Origin: Synechocystis sp. PCC 6803 substr. PCC-P
GTDB taxonomy: Bacteria; Cyanobacteriota; Cyanobacteriia; Cyanobacteriales; Microcystaceae
Length of the DNA: 32,000 nt
Assembly (NCBI RefSeq): GCF_000284455.1
Contig: NC_017039.1
Span: forward strand, 2,490,001 to 2,522,000
Direction of reading: 5' to 3'
A model generated the notes under the pieces. The model was not told the DNA's origin. It was given only the letters and a program-made list of their open reading frames with translations, and searched no databases. Positions 13,957-31,563 of this stretch are shown one piece after another. Position numbers and translations under genes: made by a program. The stretch's first letter is position 1; each line of letters opens with the position of its first letter.

Positions 13957-15231
13957 ATGGCCAGACCCATTGCCATCGACTTGTTTGCGGGCTGTGGTGG
14001 CATGTCCTTGGGTTTAGAAGCCGCTGGATTTGATATTGCCGCCGCGGTGGAATTTGATGCAGTGCATTGTTTGGTCCATCATCATAATTTTCCCTATGGT
14101 GTTACTATCTGTCGGGATATTGCTCTGGTAAGTGCGGGCGAAATTCTAAGAAAGTTAAATAATAAAGGTTATTCAAGCGATATAGACCTGATTGCTGGAG
14201 GCCCTCCCTGTCAAGGCTTTTCCCTCATGGGTAAAAGGCAGTTGGATGATCCTCGTAACTCCTTGGTGTTTGAATATGTGCGAATGATTCGGGATCTCAA
14301 ACCCAAATATTTTTTATTTGAAAATGTTCCCGGTATGCGATCGGGGCAACATAAAAAATTTTTAGAGGAATTAGTTAGGGAATTTGAAACCATTGGTTAC
14401 CACATCGAAAAACCAATTTTAGTGCTAGATGCGTCCCTCTATGGTGCTCCCCAAAAACGAAAAAGGTTGATTATTCTCGGCTCCAGAAAAGATGTCAAGC
14501 CTGTCACCTATCCCCTTCCACTCTATTTTGACGTTGCTGAATTAAAACAAAGTAATTGTTCTGAAAAATCAGTTTCTAACATAGCTTATAAACCGCCATT
14601 TACCTGTGGAGAAGCCATTGATGATCTAGTTGACCATACACCCTATGCAGTAGGAGAAGACCAAGGTATTCCATCAGAATTATTGGATTATTCAGCCCTG
14701 AGAAAAAGTTATGCCATCCATGCAAATGGAGCATTTTCCCTCTGCCATAAGCGCCAAGTTAATAATTTAGTTTATGGCCATATTGGTTCTCAACATACTG
14801 AAAAATCAATGAAAAGATTTGCGGATACTGTCCCTGGAACGGTGGAAAGAACCAGTCGCTTTCTGCGGCTATCAAAAACTGGTTTATGTAATACCCTGAG
14901 GGCCGGCACTGCTAGTGATAAGGGTGCTTATACCGCCCCTAGGCCAATACACTACGCCTTACCTAGATGTATAACTGTGAGAGAAGCGGCCAGACTCCAT
15001 ACCTATCCGGATTGGTTTCAGTTCCACAACACCATCTGGCACGGCTTTCGGGAAATTGGTAACTCCGTCGTACCTTTGCTGGCTAAGGTTTTGGGAGAAC
15101 AGGTTATGGCCGCATTGAATTGTTCTGTTGAGGATTTGCCGGTTTATGAACTGGAGCCCCAAGACCGAACATTACTACATTACAATTTGCCCCAGGCTAG
15201 TCGATATTTATGTGCCAAATCCCATTCCTAA
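13957..15231 (+). CDS. DNA (cytosine-5)-methyltransferase, Dcm-type, orphan (probably slr0214 = M.Ssp6803I)
   Basis: 424 aa with canonical m5C-MTase motifs in order: I DLFAGCGG, IV GGPPCQGFS, VI FLFENVPGM, VIII QKRKRLIILG, X REIGNSVVPLLA. No nuclease-like ORF lies on either side; the neighbours are guaA and uppP. Confidence 0.93.
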   Translation: MARPIAIDLFAGCGGMSLGLEAAGFDIAAAVEFDAVHCLVHHHNFPYGVTICRDIALVSAGEILRKLNNKGYSSDIDLIAGGPPCQGFSLMGKRQLDDPRNSLVFEYVRMIRDLKPKYFLFENVPGMRSGQHKKFLEELVREFETIGYHIEKPILVLDASLYGAPQKRKRLIILGSRKDVKPVTYPLPLYFDVAELKQSNCSEKSVSNIAYKPPFTCGEAIDDLVDHTPYAVGEDQGIPSELLDYSALRKSYAIHANGAFSLCHKRQVNNLVYGHIGSQHTEKSMKRFADTVPGTVERTSRFLRLSKTGLCNTLRAGTASDKGAYTAPRPIHYALPRCITVREAARLHTYPDWFQFHNTIWHGFREIGNSVVPLLAKVLGEQVMAALNCSVEDLPVYELEPQDRTLLHYNLPQASRYLCAKSHS

Positions 15232-16242
15232 AGCAGTTAGAATTACCACTCCAAAAATTAGACGGTACCAAACAAAAATCCAGGTGCTACGTTTTTGCAA
15301 AAATTTGATCAGCCAGGCGATCGCCAGATAGGAAAAAACAGCAGAGGAAATGGTGCCAACAATGAGGGGGAGGATTGCATCGTTACTGAGATTTTTGTCC
15401 AGTAGACCCTTTAATTCCACTAGACCAGCGATAGTAATGGCCGGGATGCCCAGCAGAAAAGAAAAACGGGCAGCGGCGGCCCGCTCTAGATTGATAAATA
15501 AACCAGCAGTTAAGGTCGAGCCGGAACGGGATACTCCGGGAATCAGGGCTAGGGCTTGGGCGGTGCCCATAATTAACCCATCCTGCCAGCGTAATTTTTC
15601 AAAGGGACGGCGATGGGTGCCCAATTTTTCTGCCAGGGCTAGCAATAGGGCCATGACAATGGAGGCGATCGCAATGGTGCTCAAACTGCGGAAGAAGGAA
15701 TTGTCCAAGTCTTGCACTAACAGTTTCATTAATAGTCCAAAGAAAACAATGGGAATGGTGCCCAAACCAATACCCAGACCTAATTTAAATTCGAGGGAAT
15801 CGTATTGGCGAGTTTGCACAGCTTTGATAATGCCCTTAGCAATGCCGGTTAAATCTTCCCAGAAGTACCAAAATACGGCTCCAATGCTACCCAATTGAAT
15901 AACGGCGGTGAACGCCACCCCTGGATCGCCCCAACCTAAAGCCATGGGCACTGCTTTTAAATGGGCTGTACTACTAATGGGTAGAAATTCCGTTGCCCCC
16001 TGAATAAAGCCCAACACAAAGGCTTGGAACAGATTAATGGATATGCCATTAGATATTACCCCCGTCTCCACTGCCTCGCTGGGAAGGATGGGCTGGGCCA
16101 CTGCAATCCCCCAAGCTTGATGATAAACAACGGCGATCGCCACACTGAGACTAAAGGCACTGAGAAAATTTAATTGGCGGGGGGACATTAACTGTCGATG
16201 ATAATCGGGACTCAAAGATCCTAGCCTATAGTGGCAGAGCAA
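15208..16242 (-). CDS. uppP: Undecaprenyl-diphosphate phosphatase (BacA/UppP) with an N-terminal extension; start uncertain
   Basis: Signature motifs GATEFLPISSTAHL and PGVSRSGSTL, and multiple TM helices. About 65 aa precede the conserved core. There is an alternative ATG at 16188 (MSPRQLNFL...). Confidence 0.88.
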   Translation of the reverse strand: MLCHYRLGSLSPDYHRQLMSPRQLNFLSAFSLSVAIAVVYHQAWGIAVAQPILPSEAVETGVISNGISINLFQAFVLGFIQGATEFLPISSTAHLKAVPMALGWGDPGVAFTAVIQLGSIGAVFWYFWEDLTGIAKGIIKAVQTRQYDSLEFKLGLGIGLGTIPIVFFGLLMKLLVQDLDNSFFRSLSTIAIASIVMALLLALAEKLGTHRRPFEKLRWQDGLIMGTAQALALIPGVSRSGSTLTAGLFINLERAAAARFSFLLGIPAITIAGLVELKGLLDKNLSNDAILPLIVGTISSAVFSYLAIAWLIKFLQKRSTWIFVWYRLIFGVVILTALGMGFGT

Positions 16243-16987: not shown

Positions 16988-17410
16988 ATGGCAGACGCCA
17001 TTGAAGTTAAAAATTATCTAGGTCACTGGTTTCAGCTTGGCCGGGCAGTAATCTTTCCCAAAAGTAATGAGGTCGTTTTACCCAGTCCGATTTTTGCTGG
17101 CCAACGATTCTCCCGAGCCTTCGAAGATTGTTGGCAACGCATCCTCACTAGTCGGGAAGATTGTTATCTAGAAGGGACGGAACAAACCCTCCAAAGCCTA
17201 CTTAGCGGTGATTGGGAAATTATCAGTTGTGCCCGCTGTGCGTTGCCGGTGCCCCTGTCCCACAGTCAAATTCCCAATTCTCTTTGTCCTTGTGTTGAGG
17301 TGGAATCCTGGCCGAATTTGGAGTTACCATTGCCCCGCCTACCGGCCAATCAAGTTTGCACCCTAAGAAAAGTTCAGGAGCGGCTGATCCGACAGGAGGA
17401 GGGAGACTGA
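16988..17410 (+). CDS. Hypothetical Cys-rich protein (140 aa), function unknown
   Basis: ATG-initiated ORF in the only long frame in this interval, not antisense to any other gene. It has seven Cys residues, including CARC (CxxC) and CPC (CxC) 16 residues apart. I recognise no family. Confidence 0.55.
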   Translation: MADAIEVKNYLGHWFQLGRAVIFPKSNEVVLPSPIFAGQRFSRAFEDCWQRILTSREDCYLEGTEQTLQSLLSGDWEIISCARCALPVPLSHSQIPNSLCPCVEVESWPNLELPLPRLPANQVCTLRKVQERLIRQEEGD

Positions 17411-17591
17411 CCAATGTTCACATGGACAATGTGTTTGCTGTTCGATCGCCTTTGAGTAGACTGGGGGACACTGGCTGGGCTAGAAATTTTCCAGCATCGA
17501 CAAAAGTGAATGGATGCCCGAGAATCACAGGCAAAATCTGCCTGGGCACTGCTTCAAAACCGTAGAAAAGGTTAAATTACCGGATTTTTGA

Positions 17592-17619
17592 TTGCCAAGG
17601 CTGGCCAATAGATTAGAAT
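17592..17619 (+). promoter_or_regulatory. Candidate sigma70-type promoter (TTGCCA-16 nt-TAGAAT) upstream of the small membrane ORF
   Basis: TTGCCA at 17592-17597 and TAGAAT at 17614-17619 with a 16-nt spacer. The -10 element ends 29 nt before the ATG at 17649. No experimental support is available here. Confidence 0.3.
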
Positions 17620-17648
17620 GTAACGGAAAGGTTTACATTTTGTTACAT

Positions 17649-17840
17649 ATGTTGGTGCCCATTCTCATTTTTGATGTGGCTTTGGTGGCCTGGTCCCTCC
17701 ACCTTATGCAACAGGCGATCGAAGAGCAGGAATTTTCTTTGATGCTGGCCGGAACTCTCGTAGCAGCAGCGGCGGCCGCCACATTGGTGGTTTATTTTCT
17801 CATGGGCCATTGTTTATCTCAATTGAGCCAGACTCTTTGA
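17649..17840 (+). CDS. Possible small membrane protein (63 aa, two predicted TM helices)
   Basis: The ATG at 17649 gives MLVPILIFDVALVAWSLHLM...FSLMLAGTLVAAAAAATLVVYFLMGHCL.... That is two hydrophobic helices joined by the charged loop QQAIEEQE. The ORF track starts earlier, at a TTG at 17592. No homolog recognised, so it could be spurious. Confidence 0.35.
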   Translation: MLVPILIFDVALVAWSLHLMQQAIEEQEFSLMLAGTLVAAAAAATLVVYFLMGHCLSQLSQTL

Positions 17841-18098
17841 CCAGCAGCATTGAGCTTTGATAATTGGTTGTCAAATTAGTCTTTGATTCAAAAGTTTACC
17901 TAAGACAGTCCCTCTTTGAGCTAGCCCAGCAGTTTTAGGCACGAATCCTCTGAATTCACCCATTTATAAAGTCTCTAGGAAGGCAGGAATATTTTAGATT
18001 AAGCAGATATCTTCTATGGAAAGCACGGGGAAATATTGACTACTGGCCACTGTTTCAGACCTTGTTCACCAGCTCCACACACGCCCTATCCTGTCGGC

Positions 18099-19121
18099 CT
18101 AAAGAGCTACTAAAGGGCAAAAGCCATGCTTGACAGAAGCTTCACCAATCGCCTCCATTTTATTAACGGAAATTTGGTTGCGGCCCCAGGAAAAATTAGT
18201 GCGCCAGCCCTCAAACTCTAGCAAAATGGCCTCCGCAAAACAGGCGAACATTTGCCGGGAGGGAATATCCATCTCCACAATCTTCATAATTTCCCAGGTA
18301 ATATCAAGGGAATGTTCTACAATCCCCCCCTTGAGAATATGCACCCCATCCGCTTTCACCCTGGTGTCTAAATTCTTGGGATAGCCCCCATCCACAATCA
18401 AACAGGGCTTTTTCAGCATTTCCCCCGCAATTTCTACCCCCTTGGGCATACTAGCCACCCAAACAATAATATCTGCCTGGGGCAGGGCTGTTTCCAAATC
18501 CATAATTTTGCCCCGACCCAATTCCTCTTGGAGATTTTCCAATCTTTGGCGGTTACGGGCAATTAGCAATAATTCCTTAACTTGATGTTTGCTATCTAAC
18601 CAACGACATACGGCGCTACCAATATCTCCCGTGGCGCCACAAACCGCTACCGTTGCCTGACTTAGATCAATACCCAACTGTTTAGCTCCAGACTCGACCT
18701 GACGGCAGATCACATAAGCGGTGTGGGTATTACCAGTGGTGAACCGCTGAAAATCTAGTTCCACATTGCGGACTTGATTATTTTGCTTGAGGTTAAATTC
18801 TTCAAATACGATTGAAGAAAAGCCTCCCAGGGCCGTAATATCCAAGCCCACCTTTTGGGCCAGGGCCATAGCATTGAGGATTTTACGAATGGCCGCTTTG
18901 ATCCGCCGTTGGGTTAACATTTCCGGCAAAAAGCAAGACTCCACATATTTGCCTTCAATCACCTGCCCCGTCACACTTTTCACCTGAAAATTATCAACCA
19001 CTTGGGGAGGAGCCGAACACCAAAAATCCAGGCCTTGGTTGGCGTACTCAGGATAGCCTAAATCTTCAGCAACCGCTTGGGCGTGTTCTAAACTCGTGAG
19101 ATGACCAATAAGACCAAACAT
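18099..19121 (-). CDS. aar: Acyl-ACP reductase (fatty aldehyde-forming), alkane pathway step 1 (probably sll0209)
   Basis: 340 aa. The start [18 protein letters not shown]... is typical of AAR. The Rossmann motif is [10 protein letters not shown]. Cys294 sits in the context [16 protein letters not shown], matching the catalytic Cys294 position of the characterised S. elongatus enzyme. Confidence 0.95.
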
Positions 19122-19267
19122 TGATAATAGTCAGAATAAATAGGGGAAGGTATCGCTTTCCGCTCAGTTAACGACTCCGATCGCCATAAAGCTTTACACA
19201 GTATGGCACAATTTGACGAACTTCCCGTTGGCATGGGCCAGCTTCCTAAAAGCACTCCAGAATAGGG

Positions 19268-19305
19268 AAAAACCCACAGATCCTAAGAAGCTTGGGATTT
19301 GTGGG
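19268..19305 (-). terminator. Intrinsic terminator immediately downstream of ado, between ado and aar
   Basis: The minus strand reads CCCACAAATCCCAAG-CTT-CTTAGGATCTGTGGG-TTTTT. This is a 15-bp stem with 2 mismatches, a 3-nt loop and a U5 tail, beginning 35 nt after the ado stop codon. Confidence 0.65.
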
Positions 19306-19339
19306 CTCATGAAATAGTTGAAGATATTTCTAGCCGGGA

Positions 19340-20035
19340 CTAGACTCCGGCCAAACCGTAGGAAGACATACGCATAATTTCCCTGGTGCTGAAGCCGATG
19401 TTACTGAGGGCTTCGCCGTAGCTGATCATAAAATCTTCCACTAGGGCTTCTTTTTCCATGCCCAATACCTTGGCGTCCCCCTGCACTTGGTTGAGCATTT
19501 TCCACACTAAGGGTAGGTTTTCTTTGTTGGCCTGCTCCAGTTCTTCCTTAGCGGTGGCAAAGTTGGCCTTTAGCCATTCTTCCCCGTAGTTGAGGTGGGT
19601 GTATTCGTCCTTGACTACGCCCTCAGTGATTTTCCGAGCAAAGTCGTCCGCCACAGGGATATATATGTTATAGGCGGCGATCGCAAAAGCTTCGATAATC
19701 AAAGCCTGGATCAATAAACAGGTAACAACTTTCCCTTCGCTAAAAGCGTGCTGGAAATTGCCATGGAGACCGGCGAAAAATTCCTGGGCATAGGGCATAT
19801 CAGGGTTCACTTGGAGGTTGTTGCCACAGGCTTGGAAACCTTTTTTATGGCGGTTTTCCATTTTGGCCAAGCGGGTCAACTCTTCTTTGTCTTCCGGCAA
19901 GAGTTCCGCCATCTGGAGGTAGTTGCTGTAGGCTTCCTGTTCGCCTTCAATGACAATGGCGTTGATGCGGCTATAGGCGTCTTTGTAAATTTCGCTGGAA
20001 TAGTCAAATTCGGTGCGGACAGCAAGCTCGGGCAT
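19340..20035 (-). CDS. ado: Aldehyde-deformylating oxygenase (ferritin-like di-iron), alkane pathway step 2 (probably sll0208)
   Basis: 231 aa. The di-iron ligand pattern is intact: E33, E60-x-x-H63 (MENRH), E115 ([10 protein letters not shown]), E144-x-x-H147 (DEYTHL). The overall sequence is typical of cyanobacterial ADO. Confidence 0.96.
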
Positions 20036-20130
20036 AGGGGCGTTGGACTCCTGTGGATGGACGGTTAAAAGGTCGATGAAGACCAGAGAATCAAAGTAAA
20101 GAAAGGTTAAGAAATTAACCCCCGGTTGTC

Positions 20131-20159
20131 TTTATAATACAGACTCTAAATTAATGCAA
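20131..20159 (-). promoter_or_regulatory. Candidate ado promoter (TTGCAT-17 nt-TATAAA on the minus strand)
   Basis: On the minus strand the -35 TTGCAT is at 20154-20159 and the -10 TATAAA is at 20131-20136, with a 17-nt spacer. This implies a leader of about 90 nt containing AGGAG 14 nt before the ATG. A second -10-like TAGAAT lies further upstream at about 20250. Confidence 0.35.
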
Positions 20160-20292
20160 ATCCCGGAGGATCATAGCGGTCTAACCATAGGGAACACCTA
20201 TCCAGTTGATTTAGTAATCTACATGGCCAGATCTGCTGCGATTTGAGTTGGCACCATTCTAGCAAAACTAGTCTAAGTTGCTGGGGGGGAGG

Positions 20293-21390
20293 TTAGTCCT
20301 GGGGATAGGAAGAGGGTCCAATTAGTTCCACTTGGGAATCATTACCAATCAGGAAGCGCAAAGCCTGGGGACGGCGGGGAGCGGGAAAAATTTTGGCGTT
20401 TTTGCCGATGACACTATCGACAATTCTTTGTTGGATGGCCACAATGCTAGCTCCTTGGAGCACGACACTATGTTCAAGATCTGCATCCCTGATTTTAACT
20501 CCCTCGGCAATACTGCTATAGGGACCGATGAAGCAGTTTTCCAGATGACAGTTGGGGCCGATCGCCACGGGGCCACGGATGACGCTGTTGATAATTTGAC
20601 TGTGGGGGCCAATGGTTACCCGACCGGAGATTTTGCTTTGATCGTCTACGGTGCCTTGGATGTTTTTTTCCACTAGGGTATCGAGGATAATCTGATTGGC
20701 GGCCAGCAGGTCGTCTTTCTTACCGGTGTCGAGCCACCATCCTTTTAGTTGTAGGGATTCCACCCGATAATCATGGCTGATCAGATATTGAATTGCATCG
20801 GTGATTTCTAGTTCTCCCCGGGCAGAGGGCTCAATGTTGGCGATCGCCTGGTGAATGGTCGGGGCAAAAAAGTAAAGTCCCACTAGGGCCAAGTTGGAAG
20901 GGGGATGCTCTGGTTTTTCCACTAGGGCTAAAACTTTGCCTTGGTCATTAACGGTGGCCACCCCAAAGGCGCTGGGATTGGACACTCGCCGCAGTAGAAT
21001 CAAGGAATCGAGGGATTTAGCCTGAAAATGGGCGAGGAATTGCTCTAGGTGGTCTTGAATTAGGTTATCGCCTAAATACATCACAAAAGGGGAATCTTGG
21101 AGAAAGTCTGCCGCCGTTTTCACTGCATGGGCCAACCCCAATGGTTCGGATTGCAAAATATAGGTAATCTGGATACCGAACTTTTCTCCGTTGCCGGTGA
21201 TAGTTTTAATTTCCTCTCCCGTTTCTGGGCTAATAATAATGCCAATGTCGGTAATGCCAGCTTTGGCGATCGCCTCAATGCCATACCAGAGGATTGGTTT
21301 GTTAGCCACAGGCACCAACTGCTTAGCCCCGGTGTAGGTGAGGGGACGCAAGCGAGTTCCTTTGCCACCGGAGAGAATGAGAGCCTTCAT
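20293..21390 (-). CDS. Sugar-1-phosphate nucleotidyltransferase, long form (glucose-1-phosphate thymidylyltransferase-like, with a C-terminal left-handed beta-helix)
   Basis: From the ATG at 21390 it reads MKALILSGGKGTRLRPLTYTGAKQL (the GGxGTRLxPLT signature). The C-terminal third is made of hexapeptide-repeat-like I/V-G-x segments. The 28-aa upstream extension in the ORF track lacks homology features. Confidence 0.85.
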   Translation of the reverse strand: MKALILSGGKGTRLRPLTYTGAKQLVPVANKPILWYGIEAIAKAGITDIGIIISPETGEEIKTITGNGEKFGIQITYILQSEPLGLAHAVKTAADFLQDSPFVMYLGDNLIQDHLEQFLAHFQAKSLDSLILLRRVSNPSAFGVATVNDQGKVLALVEKPEHPPSNLALVGLYFFAPTIHQAIANIEPSARGELEITDAIQYLISHDYRVESLQLKGWWLDTGKKDDLLAANQIILDTLVEKNIQGTVDDQSKISGRVTIGPHSQIINSVIRGPVAIGPNCHLENCFIGPYSSIAEGVKIRDADLEHSVVLQGASIVAIQQRIVDSVIGKNAKIFPAPRRPQALRFLIGNDSQVELIGPSSYPQD

Positions 21391-21631
21391 AAAAATCTTG
21401 ATAGCGGTTATGTTGTTGGGTCTAGGGTTCAGTGAACAGTTATCAGTAAGCAGGAATCGGTCAACACTGACCATTAAAACCTAATCGAGAAATGATGGCG
21501 TAAGCATCTGCCCGTAAATTGACTGATTTCGTGTCATCATCAAAAATCTCTATGCCCCATCTCAACTTGCCTGATATGTTTATTGGTGGTGGCTTTTGCC
21601 TTCCCTAACCGACCCATTGCTCCCTTGCCCT

Positions 21632-23975: not shown

Positions 23976-24353
23976 TCATTCCCAGATTAAATTAACGTTG
24001 TATTTTTTGAAATTTTCGTCTTTGCTAATGACGGAAAAATTATGTTGCTGAGCCTGGGCAATAATCATACGGTCAAAAGGATCTCGATGATGCAAGGGCA
24101 AATTGCGACAAGCTTCCAAATGTTGCCATGTGATGTTCAAAACCGAAATATTGAGATCAGCAAGTAAATTCTCTAGATCAGTAAAAGCGTAATTAAGCCT
24201 TAGTTTGTTGATGTTGAGTTTAATGGCAATCTCCCAGAGAGATACAATGCTGACATAAACTTTTGGCTTGGCTTCAATCAAACTCTTGAGATGTGATGGT
24301 AGTTTTATATCATTATCTAAAAACCACAAAAGCGTGTGGGTGTCCAGTAGCAT
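23976..24353 (-). CDS. vapC: PIN-domain ribonuclease toxin VapC
   Basis: 125 aa. It starts MLLDTHTLLWF (first acidic residue D4), then SIVSLWEIAIK, DPFDRMIIAQA and VISKDENF, which is the typical four-acidic-residue PIN pattern. Its ATG directly abuts the stop of the upstream small ORF. Confidence 0.85.
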   Translation of the reverse strand: MLLDTHTLLWFLDNDIKLPSHLKSLIEAKPKVYVSIVSLWEIAIKLNINKLRLNYAFTDLENLLADLNISVLNITWQHLEACRNLPLHHRDPFDRMIIAQAQQHNFSVISKDENFKKYNVNLIWE

Positions 24354-24575
24354 TTACATATACTCCTGCATTTCTTCCAAAGGAGCATCAAAGTCATCTG
24401 CCATCCAAATTTTCCCCTTTAGAACACCTGCTTGACGATATTTTTTTTGTCCATCATTGGTTACTGGACTGACTGGTGGTTGCTTAGTCAGCAGAAATTC
24501 GACAAAGTGTTCTACTTCAATTTTCATGGCATCGGGGAGAGCATTGATCTTTTCTAGTAGGGCGGTGTCTGTCAT
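24354..24575 (-). CDS. Type II antitoxin (DUF2281-like) partner of VapC
   Basis: 73 aa. The N-terminal INALPDAMKIEVEHFVEFLL and the C-terminal DDFDAPLEEMQEYM are typical of DUF2281 antitoxins paired with PIN toxins. An AAGGAG Shine-Dalgarno sequence lies 7 nt upstream of the ATG. Confidence 0.75.
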   Translation of the reverse strand: MTDTALLEKINALPDAMKIEVEHFVEFLLTKQPPVSPVTNDGQKKYRQAGVLKGKIWMADDFDAPLEEMQEYM

Positions 24576-24639: not shown

Positions 24640-26010
24640 CTAAACTCGACAGGTTGCTAGACTTTTGATGCTAGTTTGCCAGGTTGTTAAATCAGCCAAA
24701 GCTCGATCCCGATATTGACCGTAACGTTCTTGCTTATTACGAATCCGCTGGGGCAATTCCGGTAAAATTCCAAAATTGGGCGGCATGGGCTGGAAATGTT
24801 TGGGGGAAGCGGAACTGATGAAGTTAAATAAAGCTCCCATCATGGTGGTGGCCGGCAATGTGAGCAAAGGTAAACCCAACGCCAACCGGGCCGCATTGGT
24901 GCCCGCTAACCATCCCCCGGCTGTGGCAGCGGCATAACCCTCCGTTCCCACTAACTGCCCCGCCGCAAATAAAGTCTGGCGATCGCCGAAATGGAGACTA
25001 GCGGTCAGAAGTTGGGGGGAATTAATAAAAGTATTGCGGTGCATTACCCCCATGCGAACAAACTCAGCGTTTTCCAAACCGGGAATCAAGCGGAAAACCC
25101 GTCCCTGTTCTCCCCAGCGTAAATTGGTCTGAAAACCCACCATATTCCACAATTGTCCTGCCTTATCTTCCTGGCGCAATTGCACCACTGCATAGGGCTT
25201 TTTCTCCTTGTTAGCAGGATCTCGAAAATCCCCCAAACGGGCATCAAATAGACCAACGGGCTTTAGGGGGCCGTAACGCATGGTGTCTTCCCCCCGCTGG
25301 GCCAACTCTTCTATGGGTAAACATCCCTCAAAAAACTTAGCTGTTTCTCGGTCAAAGTCCTTCAGGGGAGCTTGTTCGGCCTCACACAATGCCTGCCAAA
25401 AATTGAAATATTGCTCTCGGTTAAAGGGGCAGTTGAGATAGGCCGCCTCCCCTTTGTCATAACGGGAAGCAAAAAAAGCTACTTCTTTATTGATGGAATC
25501 CCCCACCACAATGGGACTGGCCGCATCGAAAAAGCTTAGGTATTCCATGCCGGTGAATTGTTGCAAATCCTCCGTTAGCGCTGGGCTAGTGAGGGGTCCC
25601 GTAGTCAGCACCGTAATACCTTCCCTGGGAATTTCCGTTACTTCCCCCCGCCGTAATTCCACCAGGGGATGGCTGGCCACTTGCTCTGTCAAAGACCGGC
25701 TAAAAATTCCCCGGTCCACCGCCAAAGCACCCCCAGCTGGCACTGCATGGCGATCCGCTGTGGTAATAATGAGAGAACTCAACTGCCGTAATTCTGTTTG
25801 CAAAAGTCCCGCTGCCCGATCGCCAGCTTTGGCCCCAAAGGAATTGCTACAGACCAACTCCGCCAAATCCTCACTGTGGTGGGCTGGACTCAGACGTTCG
25901 GGGCGCATTTCCGTCAAAATAACTGGAACTCCTGCTTGGGCAATTTGCCAGGCGGCCTCCGTACCCGCTAAGCCTCCACCGATAACATGGATGGGCGTTA
26001 AAGTGGTCAT
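24640..26010 (-). CDS. trmFO: Methylenetetrahydrofolate--tRNA-(uracil54-C5)-methyltransferase TrmFO (Gid)
   Basis: 456 aa. The N-terminal FAD-binding motif is [16 protein letters not shown]. The length and the GQL.GTEGY..A.A.G motif near residue 350 are typical of TrmFO. Confidence 0.93.
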
Positions 26011-29100: not shown

Positions 29101-29683
29101 AAATTCTAGCCAACGGCTGAAACAACTAATTGATGATGTGCTTTCCATTAGTCGCTATGATGCCAATAAGATAGAAATTGAGCTAGGTAACATTAACCTA
29201 AGGAACTTAGCTAACGATTTAATCGAGAATTTTAGCTGTGGCCTGGGCAGTGAACATAATTTTGAGCTTAACTACCATCTCAAGCCGGACGAACACTCCC
29301 TGGTGGATGTGAGACTACTCCGCCATATTTTGGAAAATATTTTAAGTAATGCCATTAAATATTCGGCCCCGGGTAGCACTATCACCCTAGATATTAGTAA
29401 GGATGAAGAGCATTTACTTTTCCAAGTACGGGACGAAGGCATTGGTATTCCCCTCCAGGACCAGGAAAAACTGTTTGAAGCTTTCCATCGTGCCAGCAAC
29501 GTAGGGGATATTCCCGGTACTGGTTTGGGATTGAGCATTGTTAAACGCTATGTGGAATTTCAGGGAGGGACAATCGAGGTGATATCGATGCCAGGAAAAG
29601 GGACCACAATGGTGATCAAATTGCCCCTAAACCCTGCCCCGATCATCCAGATTGCTCAGGGGGAAACCGATCGCCTGAGTTGA
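26147..29683 (+). CDS. Soluble multi-domain sensor histidine kinase: degenerate receiver + 6 PAS + HisKA + HATPase_c (possibly slr0222/Hik25, from memory)
   Basis: 1178 aa from the ATG at 26147. The receiver-like N-terminus is KVLLVDDQ...[14 protein letters not shown]. Six PAS-like modules each end in D-I-[ST]-x-x-K. The H-box is [11 protein letters not shown], the N-box [10 protein letters not shown]1 VRDEGIGIP and G2 [14 protein letters not shown]. No hydrophobic TM segments. Confidence 0.9.
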
Positions 29684-31563
29684 GTTTCTAGATAAACCAG
29701 GAGGGCATTGATATCGGCGGGGTTAACGCCCCCAATGCGACCGGCTTGACCAATGGTGAGGGGTTGGAACTGGGTTAGTTTTTCCCTTGCTTCCATGGAT
29801 AGGGTTTCAATGGCCATGTAATTTAAGCCGGGGGGCAAACGTTTTTGGCTATGGCGGCTCACCTGTTCAATTTGGGTTTGTTGCCGCTTAATGTAGCCGG
29901 AATATTTGATTTCGATTTCCACGCTGGTTTTTTCCTCCGGTTTTAATTCCTCGTTACCCAACTGAAATTTTTCTAAATCTGGATAATGAAATCCAGGTCG
30001 TCGTAGTAACTCCGCCAGCACAATGGAGCCTTTAATTTTCTGTTGGGTATAATCAACAATTTCTTTACCCACTGCATCTTGCTCTTTGATGCGGGTACTG
30101 TACAGTCTTTCTTTTTCGGCGGTGATGTTAGCTTGTTTGGTTTGGAATAGGTCCCAACGGCGATCGTCAATTAAGCCAATTTCCCTTCCCAGAGGGGTTA
30201 ACCTTTGATCGGCATTGTCGGAACGTAAAATTAAGCGGTACTCGGAACGGCTGGTGAGCATCCGGTAGGGTTCCCGCAAATCTTTGGTGCATAAATCATC
30301 AATTAATGTACCCAGATAACTTCCCTCCCGGGAGAAGATGATCAATGATTTTCCTTGACAATGACGGGCCGCATTGATCCCCGCCACCAGACCCTGGGCC
30401 GCCGCTTCTTCATAGCCAGTGGTGCCGTTAATTTGCCCAGCACAAAATAGTCCTGCCACTTTTTTGGTCATCAAACTGGGATAACACTGGGTAGCCGGTA
30501 AAAAGTCGTATTCCACTGCGTAAGCGGGGCGCAACATGACACAATTTTCCAACCCCGGTAGAGTTTGTAGCATGGCCAATTGCACATTTTCCGGTAGCCC
30601 CGTGGAAAAACCTTGAATATACAATTCAGGAATGTCTCGACCTTCCGGCTCGATAAAAATTTGGTGACTTTCTTTGTCAGCGAAACGAACAATTTTATCT
30701 TCGATGGAAGGACAATAACGGGGCCCCTTAGAGTCAATAAAACCGCCATAAATGGGAGATAAATGGAGATTATCTTTAATTAATTGGTGGGTCTTAGCTG
30801 TTGTTCTGGTCAAATAACAATTCATTTGCTCCCGCTCTACCCACACTTCCGGGTCAAAGCTAAACCAACTTACCTGTTCATCTGGGGGTTGGGGCTCTAA
30901 TTTGTCATAATCTACCGATCGCCGATCAACCCTGGCCGGAGTTCCCGTTTTTAACCTGCCAGTTTCAAAGCCCAGTTCATTCAAAGTTTCCGTTAGGCCT
31001 ACTGCCGCAAATTCGCCGGCCCGCCCCGCTGGCATGGACTTATTACCAATCCAAATTTTGCCCCCCAGGAAAGTCCCTGTCGTAATCACCACCGACTGGG
31101 CTCCAAAGCAAGCGCCAAAGTAGGTCTGCACACCTTGAATCTCATCATTGTCCCCCAACACCAAATCCGTCACCATCCCTTCCCGAATGGATAGATTAGG
31201 TTGATTTTCAACGATATTTTTCATCACCGCCGCATATTCCCGCTTATCCGTTTGGGCCCGCAATGCCCACACCGCCGGCCCCCGGGAAATATTTAACACC
31301 CGCTTTTGCAGATAGGTACGGTCGGCCATTTTGCCAATTTCCCCCCCCAGTGCATCCACTTCATGGGTTAACTGGGATTTAGCCGGCCCTCCCACTGCAG
31401 GGTTACAGGGTTGCCAAGCAATGCGGTCTAAGTTGAGGGTTAACAGTAGGGTGCGACAGCCCAACCGAGCCGTGGCCAAGGCCGCCTCACAACCCGCATG
31501 GCCTGCCCCCACCACGATGACATCAAATTGGTCTTGGAATTCCACTGGCGATCGAAGGGTCAT
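29656..31563 (-). CDS. mnmG: tRNA uridine-5-carboxymethylaminomethyl(34) synthesis enzyme MnmG (GidA)
   Basis: 635 aa. The FAD motif is [16 protein letters not shown], followed by ...[11 protein letters not shown]..., ...[19 protein letters not shown]... and a C-terminal ...[14 protein letters not shown].... Confidence 0.95.

Follow-up and report, generated by a model that had tools for sequence, protein, structure and literature searches.

Analysis of a 32,000-nt stretch of DNA (the window, in whose numbering all positions are given) revealed two adjoining minus-strand ORFs which are, with a probability of roughly 98%, the characterised pair ado and aar of the two-step alkane pathway of Synechocystis sp. 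PCC 6803, and no evidence against this identification was found here. The original prediction, made from the letters of the sequence and its ORFs, had placed two adjacent minus-strand genes of alkane biosynthesis between 18099 and 20035, and both ORFs were found there (Table 1). It had also called the system described rather than novel, which is correct given that the pair is sll0208/sll0209; the locus is already known and nothing new is added on the pathway itself. The present analysis established which genes these are, their catalytic residues, how the terminator folds and that the gene order is conserved; the enzyme chemistry, the transcript ends and the mutant phenotypes are taken from the literature.

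Table 1. Genes, promoters and transcript features at the ado and aar locus, in window positions.
Feature	Position	Strand	Description
rmlA-long, long-form glucose-1-phosphate thymidylyltransferase	20293-21474	-	upstream of ado; TIGR01208, 561 bits
Distal ado promoter P1	20249-20261	-	-10 element TAGAAT at 20256-20261; TSS1 at 20249 (PMC4094844)
sRNA SyR9, ~160 nt	~20249 down to ~20090	-	transcribed from P1 (PMC4094844)
Proximal ado promoter P2	20123-20159	-	published TSS 20141 or 20123/20124
ado (sll0208), aldehyde-deformylating oxygenase (ADO)	19340-20035	-	231 aa, ferritin-like non-haem di-iron enzyme
Intrinsic terminator of ado mRNA	19268-19308	-	hairpin GAGCCCACA...UGUGGGUUU followed by a U-run
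ado mRNA 3' end	19265	-	published position 2511439, 75 nt past the ado stop codon (PMC4094844)
aar promoter P3	19193-19205	-	-10 element CATACT at 19200-19205; TSS3 at 19193, 72 nt before the aar ATG
aar (sll0209), long-chain acyl-ACP reductase (AAR)	18099-19121	-	340 aa
aar 3' UTR	18035-18098	-	mapped mRNA end 64 nt past the stop codon (PMC4094844)

Gene identity and catalytic residues

Exact-sequence look-up matched the 231-aa protein to BAA10217.1 (sll0208) and the 340-aa protein to BAA10216.1 (sll0209), both of Synechocystis sp. PCC 6803. All 231 residues of the former (231/231, 100%) are identical to those of the ADO crystal structure PDB 4Z5S_A, and through this identity to a solved structure the ferritin-like helical fold with its substrate tunnel is present as well. 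Relative to sll0208/sll0209 and PDB 4Z5S no difference was detected: the window pair is identical, and the positions of the published transcript ends and of the deletion primers agree exactly. Regarding family membership, the 231-aa protein scores 414.9 bits against Pfam PF11266 (cut-off 28, E=1.1e-124) and 421.5 bits against the NCBIfam equivalog TIGR04059 (cut-off 222.65, E=8e-127; model positions 2-219 of 220), and the 340-aa protein scores 664.1 bits against the NCBIfam equivalog TIGR04058 (cut-off 449.7, E=4.3e-200; model positions 1-338 of 339), matches well outside what chance would give. The predicted assignment of the two proteins to the AAR and ADO alkane pathway is thus borne out both by equivalog scores above the cut-offs and by the exact matches to sll0208/sll0209.

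A comparison with orf1593 (ADO; PDB 4QUW, 4RC5-8) and orf1594 (AAR; PDB 6JZQ, 6JZU; complex 6JZY) of S. elongatus PCC 7942, which had been proposed as a check of the prediction, gave gapless alignments with equal lengths and the same residue numbering, at identities of 72.3% for ADO (167/231) and 68.6% for AAR (232/338), the latter aligning with PDB 6JZU_A over residues 1-338 at E=7.2e-161. While about 30% of the residues differ between the two pairs, they agree in every iron ligand, in C294, in the GXXGXXG motif and at the interface residues.

The iron ligands of S. elongatus ADO are Glu32, Glu60, His63, Glu115, Glu144 and His147 (PMC4286721), and all six are found at the S. elongatus positions in the window ADO, which contains two E...EXXH di-iron motifs. 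Five of these ligands (E60, H63, E115, E144 and H147) had been predicted as such; the sixth had been given as E33, a position that holds Gln within the stretch E30-G-E32-Q33-E34. Glu32 is the first iron ligand, since it aligns without gaps with Glu32 of S. elongatus and is listed for that enzyme (PMC4286721), and the slip by one residue leaves the conclusion unaffected.

In AAR, the ten-residue motif of the original prediction is present at residues 162-171 of the 340-aa protein, where the NADPH motif GXXGXXG takes the form G162-A-T-G165-D-I-G168 (GATGDIG), identical to that of S. elongatus AAR. The Cys predicted at residue 294 in the context FACFAE is likewise present and aligned without gaps to C294 of S. 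elongatus AAR, the role of this residue being the formation of the acyl-enzyme thioester (PMC9743570). The basic residues R73, R79, K80 and R118, which constitute the AAR patch for docking onto ADO (PMC9743570), are all conserved relative to S. elongatus (4/4).

Gene order and genomic neighbourhood

For the analysis of gene order, one genome per species was scanned, yielding 405 stretches with an AAR relative, of which the best 80 were examined; the order and spacer counts refer to the 76 loci among these best 80 of 405 that have at least 1300 nt upstream of aar. Of these 76 loci, 52 carry ado immediately before aar in the same orientation, with spacers of 49-510 nt (median 221.5 nt), a length compatible with separate promoters being common. 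At 24 of the 76 loci no ado was present in the flank within 5 kb of aar, many of them in Crocosphaera and diatom-endosymbiont genomes (loci without a nearby ado include L011-L013, L016, L018, L020, L023-L026, L028-L031, L033, L054, L055, L059 and L060), in agreement with the split of ado and aar already reported for some species (PMC4094844).

In a published survey, ado immediately precedes aar in the same orientation in 76% of genomes, as it does in the window, and 61% have the pair clustered with accA and a short-chain dehydrogenase (PMC4094844). An ORF of ~326 aa is found 3' of aar in many of the relatives scanned here, and the one tested (L032) is accA (TIGR00513, 477 bits). Unlike the ado-aar-accA clusters, the window has after aar a 258-nt gap, in which no ORF of at least 60 aa was detected, and then an 82-aa ORF without a family match (17592-17840, plus strand) that converges on aar. 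As no accA follows aar here, the local context gives no tie to fatty-acid metabolism, which accords with the predicted neighbours, a sugar nucleotidyltransferase upstream and a gap downstream, and with the remark that they offer no local hint of function. Neither the 82-aa ORF nor the 140-aa ORF at 16988-17410 (plus strand) has a Pfam or NCBIfam match, and in Synechocystis salina (L001) both show 94-98% identity.

Around the pair lie chromosomal housekeeping genes of an ordinary kind, namely recG, a class A penicillin-binding protein, guaA, a C5 DNA methylase, bacA/uppP, cobU, rmlA-long, glyS, two GIDA-family genes and a hybrid histidine kinase. The rmlA-long ORF as listed is longer by 29 residues at its N-terminus than the family model, which starts at residue 30, and from its sequence the real start is probably the internal Met at residue 29 (MKALILSGG). 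The C5 cytosine DNA methylase (PF00145; 13957-15231, plus strand) has no obvious restriction partner adjoining it, and at its 3' end it shares 24 nt with the convergent BacA/UppP ORF (15208-16242, minus strand). In the latter the BacA domain starts only at residue 74, and the true start therefore probably lies further in. A PIN-domain ORF of 125 aa (PF01850) and a 73-aa ORF abutting directly before it (23976-24575, minus strand) look like a putative VapBC-type toxin-antitoxin pair. No more than 6 kb separates two genes of the GIDA family, one of 456 aa (24640-26010, minus strand) and one of 635 aa with MnmG C-terminal domains (29656-31563, minus strand); they flank a hybrid PAS histidine kinase of 1183 aa, in a stretch of low GC content (0.38-0.40). 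The octamer GCGATCGC, which we take to be the cyanobacterial HIP1 repeat, occurs in 27 copies in the window against 0.24 expected, and one copy is situated inside ado (19677-19684).

Separate transcription of ado and aar

The original prediction had described the pair as a module, which stands in so far as the two dedicated enzymes adjoin and does not stand in the sense of an operon: the two genes form separate transcription units, with two promoters for ado, one for aar and a terminator between them (PMC4094844). Mapping at sll0208/sll0209 has placed three transcription starts and two mRNA 3' ends (Klaehn et al., 2014; PMC4094844), and the published transcript ends 2512423, 2511367, 2511439 and 2510209 were converted to window positions with a single offset of 2492174. 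The converted ends reproduce the published distances (72 nt before the aar ATG, 75 nt past the ado stop codon and 64 nt past the aar stop codon) as well as the published mRNA lengths of 985 nt and 1159 nt, the aar mRNA of 1159 nt running from 19193 down to 18035. For the comparison of non-coding regions, the window was aligned with its three closest relatives, L001 (Synechocystis salina) and two MAGs.

Transcription of ado and aar as a single operon, from one promoter and as one dicistronic mRNA, would fit their adjacency on one strand and the position of ado upstream of aar in 52/76 related loci, and some read-through of the terminator is conceivable from sequence alone; it is nevertheless very improbable and already largely refuted. 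The 218-nt spacer that follows ado contains a hairpin and U-run where the 3' end of ado mRNA was mapped; the segment 19255-19339 (minus strand) folds at -23.8 kcal/mol (z = -2.59), and by eye, the alignment shows a hairpin with a T-run in the corresponding place behind ado in three Synechocystis-clade relatives, although the sequence has diverged. The spacer also holds a promoter box, conserved and situated where aar transcription was mapped to start: TSS3 is published as 2511367 (PMC4094844), primer extension independently placed the aar start at -72 (PMC12127877), and TGCCATACTGTGTAAAGC, the P3 box, does not vary between the window and L001-L003. Northern blots give monocistronic sizes only (PMC4094844), and the spacers of the relatives, with their median of 221.5 nt, are long as well. 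Neither one shared promoter, nor a spacer free of internal terminators, nor a dicistronic mRNA, by which an operon would be recognised, was found.

Regarding the two promoters from which the separately transcribed ado gene is expressed, the distal promoter P1 begins ~30 nt past the stop codon of rmlA-long, and the window, L001 and L002 have TTTTGCTAGAAT in common in this region. SyR9, besides being a short RNA, is also the 5' part of a 985-nt SyR9-ado co-transcript (20249 down to 19265), and it overlaps the proximal promoter and the ado 5' UTR. The regulatory elements reach ~20261 and thus past the interval 18099-20035, with SyR9 lying partly outside it.

For the proximal promoter P2, the published start positions disagree: a start at 2512315, equal to -106 from the ATG and to window position 20141, was given by Klaehn et al. 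(2014; PMC4094844), one at -88 was obtained by primer extension (Nagao et al., 2025; PMC12127877), and a start at -89 is attributed to Kopf et al. (2014) as quoted in PMC12127877, the positions -88/-89 corresponding to 20123/20124 of the window. The hexamers TTGCAT (20154-20159) and TATAAA (20131-20136), separated by 17 nt, lie at the right distance for a start at -88/-89, and both fall within blocks invariant across four Synechocystis-clade genomes. At P2 these four genomes agree fully in the blocks ATTTGCATTAA and TATTATAAA-ACAAC, and CTGTATTATAAAGACAAC is identical in three of the four, with 2 mismatches in L003.

A consensus promoter scan of 17400-20400 returned 8 sites against 3.7 expected, none of them a mapped promoter, and a consensus terminator scan of the same interval returned 5 sites against 3.7 expected and missed the real ado terminator, probably because its loop is longer than the limit of the scan. 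The consensus scan was set aside, and the promoters and the terminator rest on published mapping, folding and conservation. In an 8-mer survey and a fuzzy search of 53-54 upstream regions, the boxes of P1, P2 and P3 turned up nowhere except in the window and the three genomes closest to it, a sharing that is no more than close kinship predicts.

Parts of SyR9 are conserved within the Synechocystis clade. It might be regulatory in its own right, either as an attenuator that sets the short RNA against the full ado mRNA or as a trans-acting sRNA that ties alkane synthesis to some other process, a tentative suggestion that we consider rather unlikely. The whole ado leader (20036-20249) folds no more stably than shuffled sequences (z = -0.64) and the candidate 3' hairpin of SyR9 (20105-20123) is weak (-8.2 kcal/mol, z = -0.77 against shuffles), so that the energetics lend no support to an attenuator. 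Rfam searches of the whole window at the gathering threshold returned only tRNA-Ser, and those of 17400-20500 at a permissive threshold (E up to 1) returned no match, and hence SyR9 and the UTRs correspond to no described RNA family.

Pathway chemistry and alternative functions

The enzyme chemistry has mostly been worked out on orthologues from S. elongatus, Nostoc and Prochlorococcus and not on these exact proteins. Following that work, AAR would take up a C16 or C18 acyl chain from acyl-ACP as a thioester on Cys294, and NADPH, bound at GATGDIG, would reduce the thioester so that a fatty aldehyde is released in a ping-pong mechanism; the two enzymes would form an electrostatic complex via R73, R79, K80 and R118, in which the insoluble aldehyde may pass directly into ADO, between the hydrophobic tunnels (acyl transfer, ping-pong reduction and AAR-ADO aldehyde channelling are described in PMC9743570). 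The di-iron centre of ADO, with O2 and electrons from ferredoxin/FNR/NADPH, would then remove C1 as formate and yield a Cn-1 alkane or alkene (PMC4286721, PMC9743570), and by analogy with this literature the window ADO is expected to convert a Cn aldehyde to a Cn-1 alkane and formate. The pathway, which the original prediction had called complete, is so with respect to its two dedicated enzymes only; the electron donors, which for ADO would be ferredoxin/FNR/NADPH, and the acyl-ACP supply are encoded elsewhere.

Product chain-length preference varies among strains and is for C17 in Synechocystis 6803. The main products of this organism are heptadecane and heptadecene, and its alka(e)ne content was doubled by overexpressing sll0208 and sll0209 together, with no doubling by either gene alone (PMC3679977). 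Deletion of the two genes, a further check that had been proposed, has a published counterpart. The primers used for the replacement of sll0208-sll0209 (Berla et al., 2015) match window positions 20036-20053 and 18080-18098, and because they abut positions 20036 and 18098 the replaced interval is exactly 18099-20035. According to the abstract of that study, the mutant makes no alkanes and grows poorly in the cold.

The slowness of ADO, with a kcat below 1 per min (PMC5356278), and the use of a sll0208 and sll0209 knockout to raise fatty-alcohol yields in engineered strains (PMC4096523) could be taken to mean that the pair mainly makes fatty aldehydes or alcohols in vivo, aldehyde reductases diverting the AAR output and alkanes being a by-product. 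This is very improbable, for conservation extends to the residues by which AAR docks onto ADO and channels the aldehyde, and the alkane-free mutant, in the wording of the abstract, has a cold-growth phenotype; alkane formation by the pair is the preferred reading.

Regarding homologous enzymes of other pathways, the thioester-reductase domains of PigE and TamH (prodigiosin and tambjamine biosynthesis) are Rossmann-type reductases with a catalytic cysteine, like AAR, but they are fused to a PLP aminotransferase and serve pigment biosynthesis, and the window AAR falls far under the cut-off of that family. That the reductase is a PigE/TamH-like thioester reductase of another pathway and the di-iron protein a ferritin-like oxidase with another substrate, as the fold shared with the PigE reductase domain (NF053554, 101.4 bits; PDB 4PPM, E=8.3e-12) and a weak hit on the CER1-like C-terminal domain of plants might suggest, is next to impossible: the PigE model reaches 101 bits against a cut-off of 850 and TIGR04058 reaches 664 against 449.7, the PigE/TamH-type and CER1-like readings of the reductase being rejected on score, and the reading is refuted by the exact identity to the experimentally studied sll0208/sll0209, whose deletion abolishes alkanes according to the published abstract.

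The annotation label for this locus is thus ado (sll0208) and aar (sll0209) of the cyanobacterial alkane pathway, and any expression analysis or engineering of the pair must reckon with three promoters, the terminator between the genes and the SyR9 RNA. The alkane pathway that these two genes encode is relevant both to biofuel engineering and to the physiology of thylakoid membranes.
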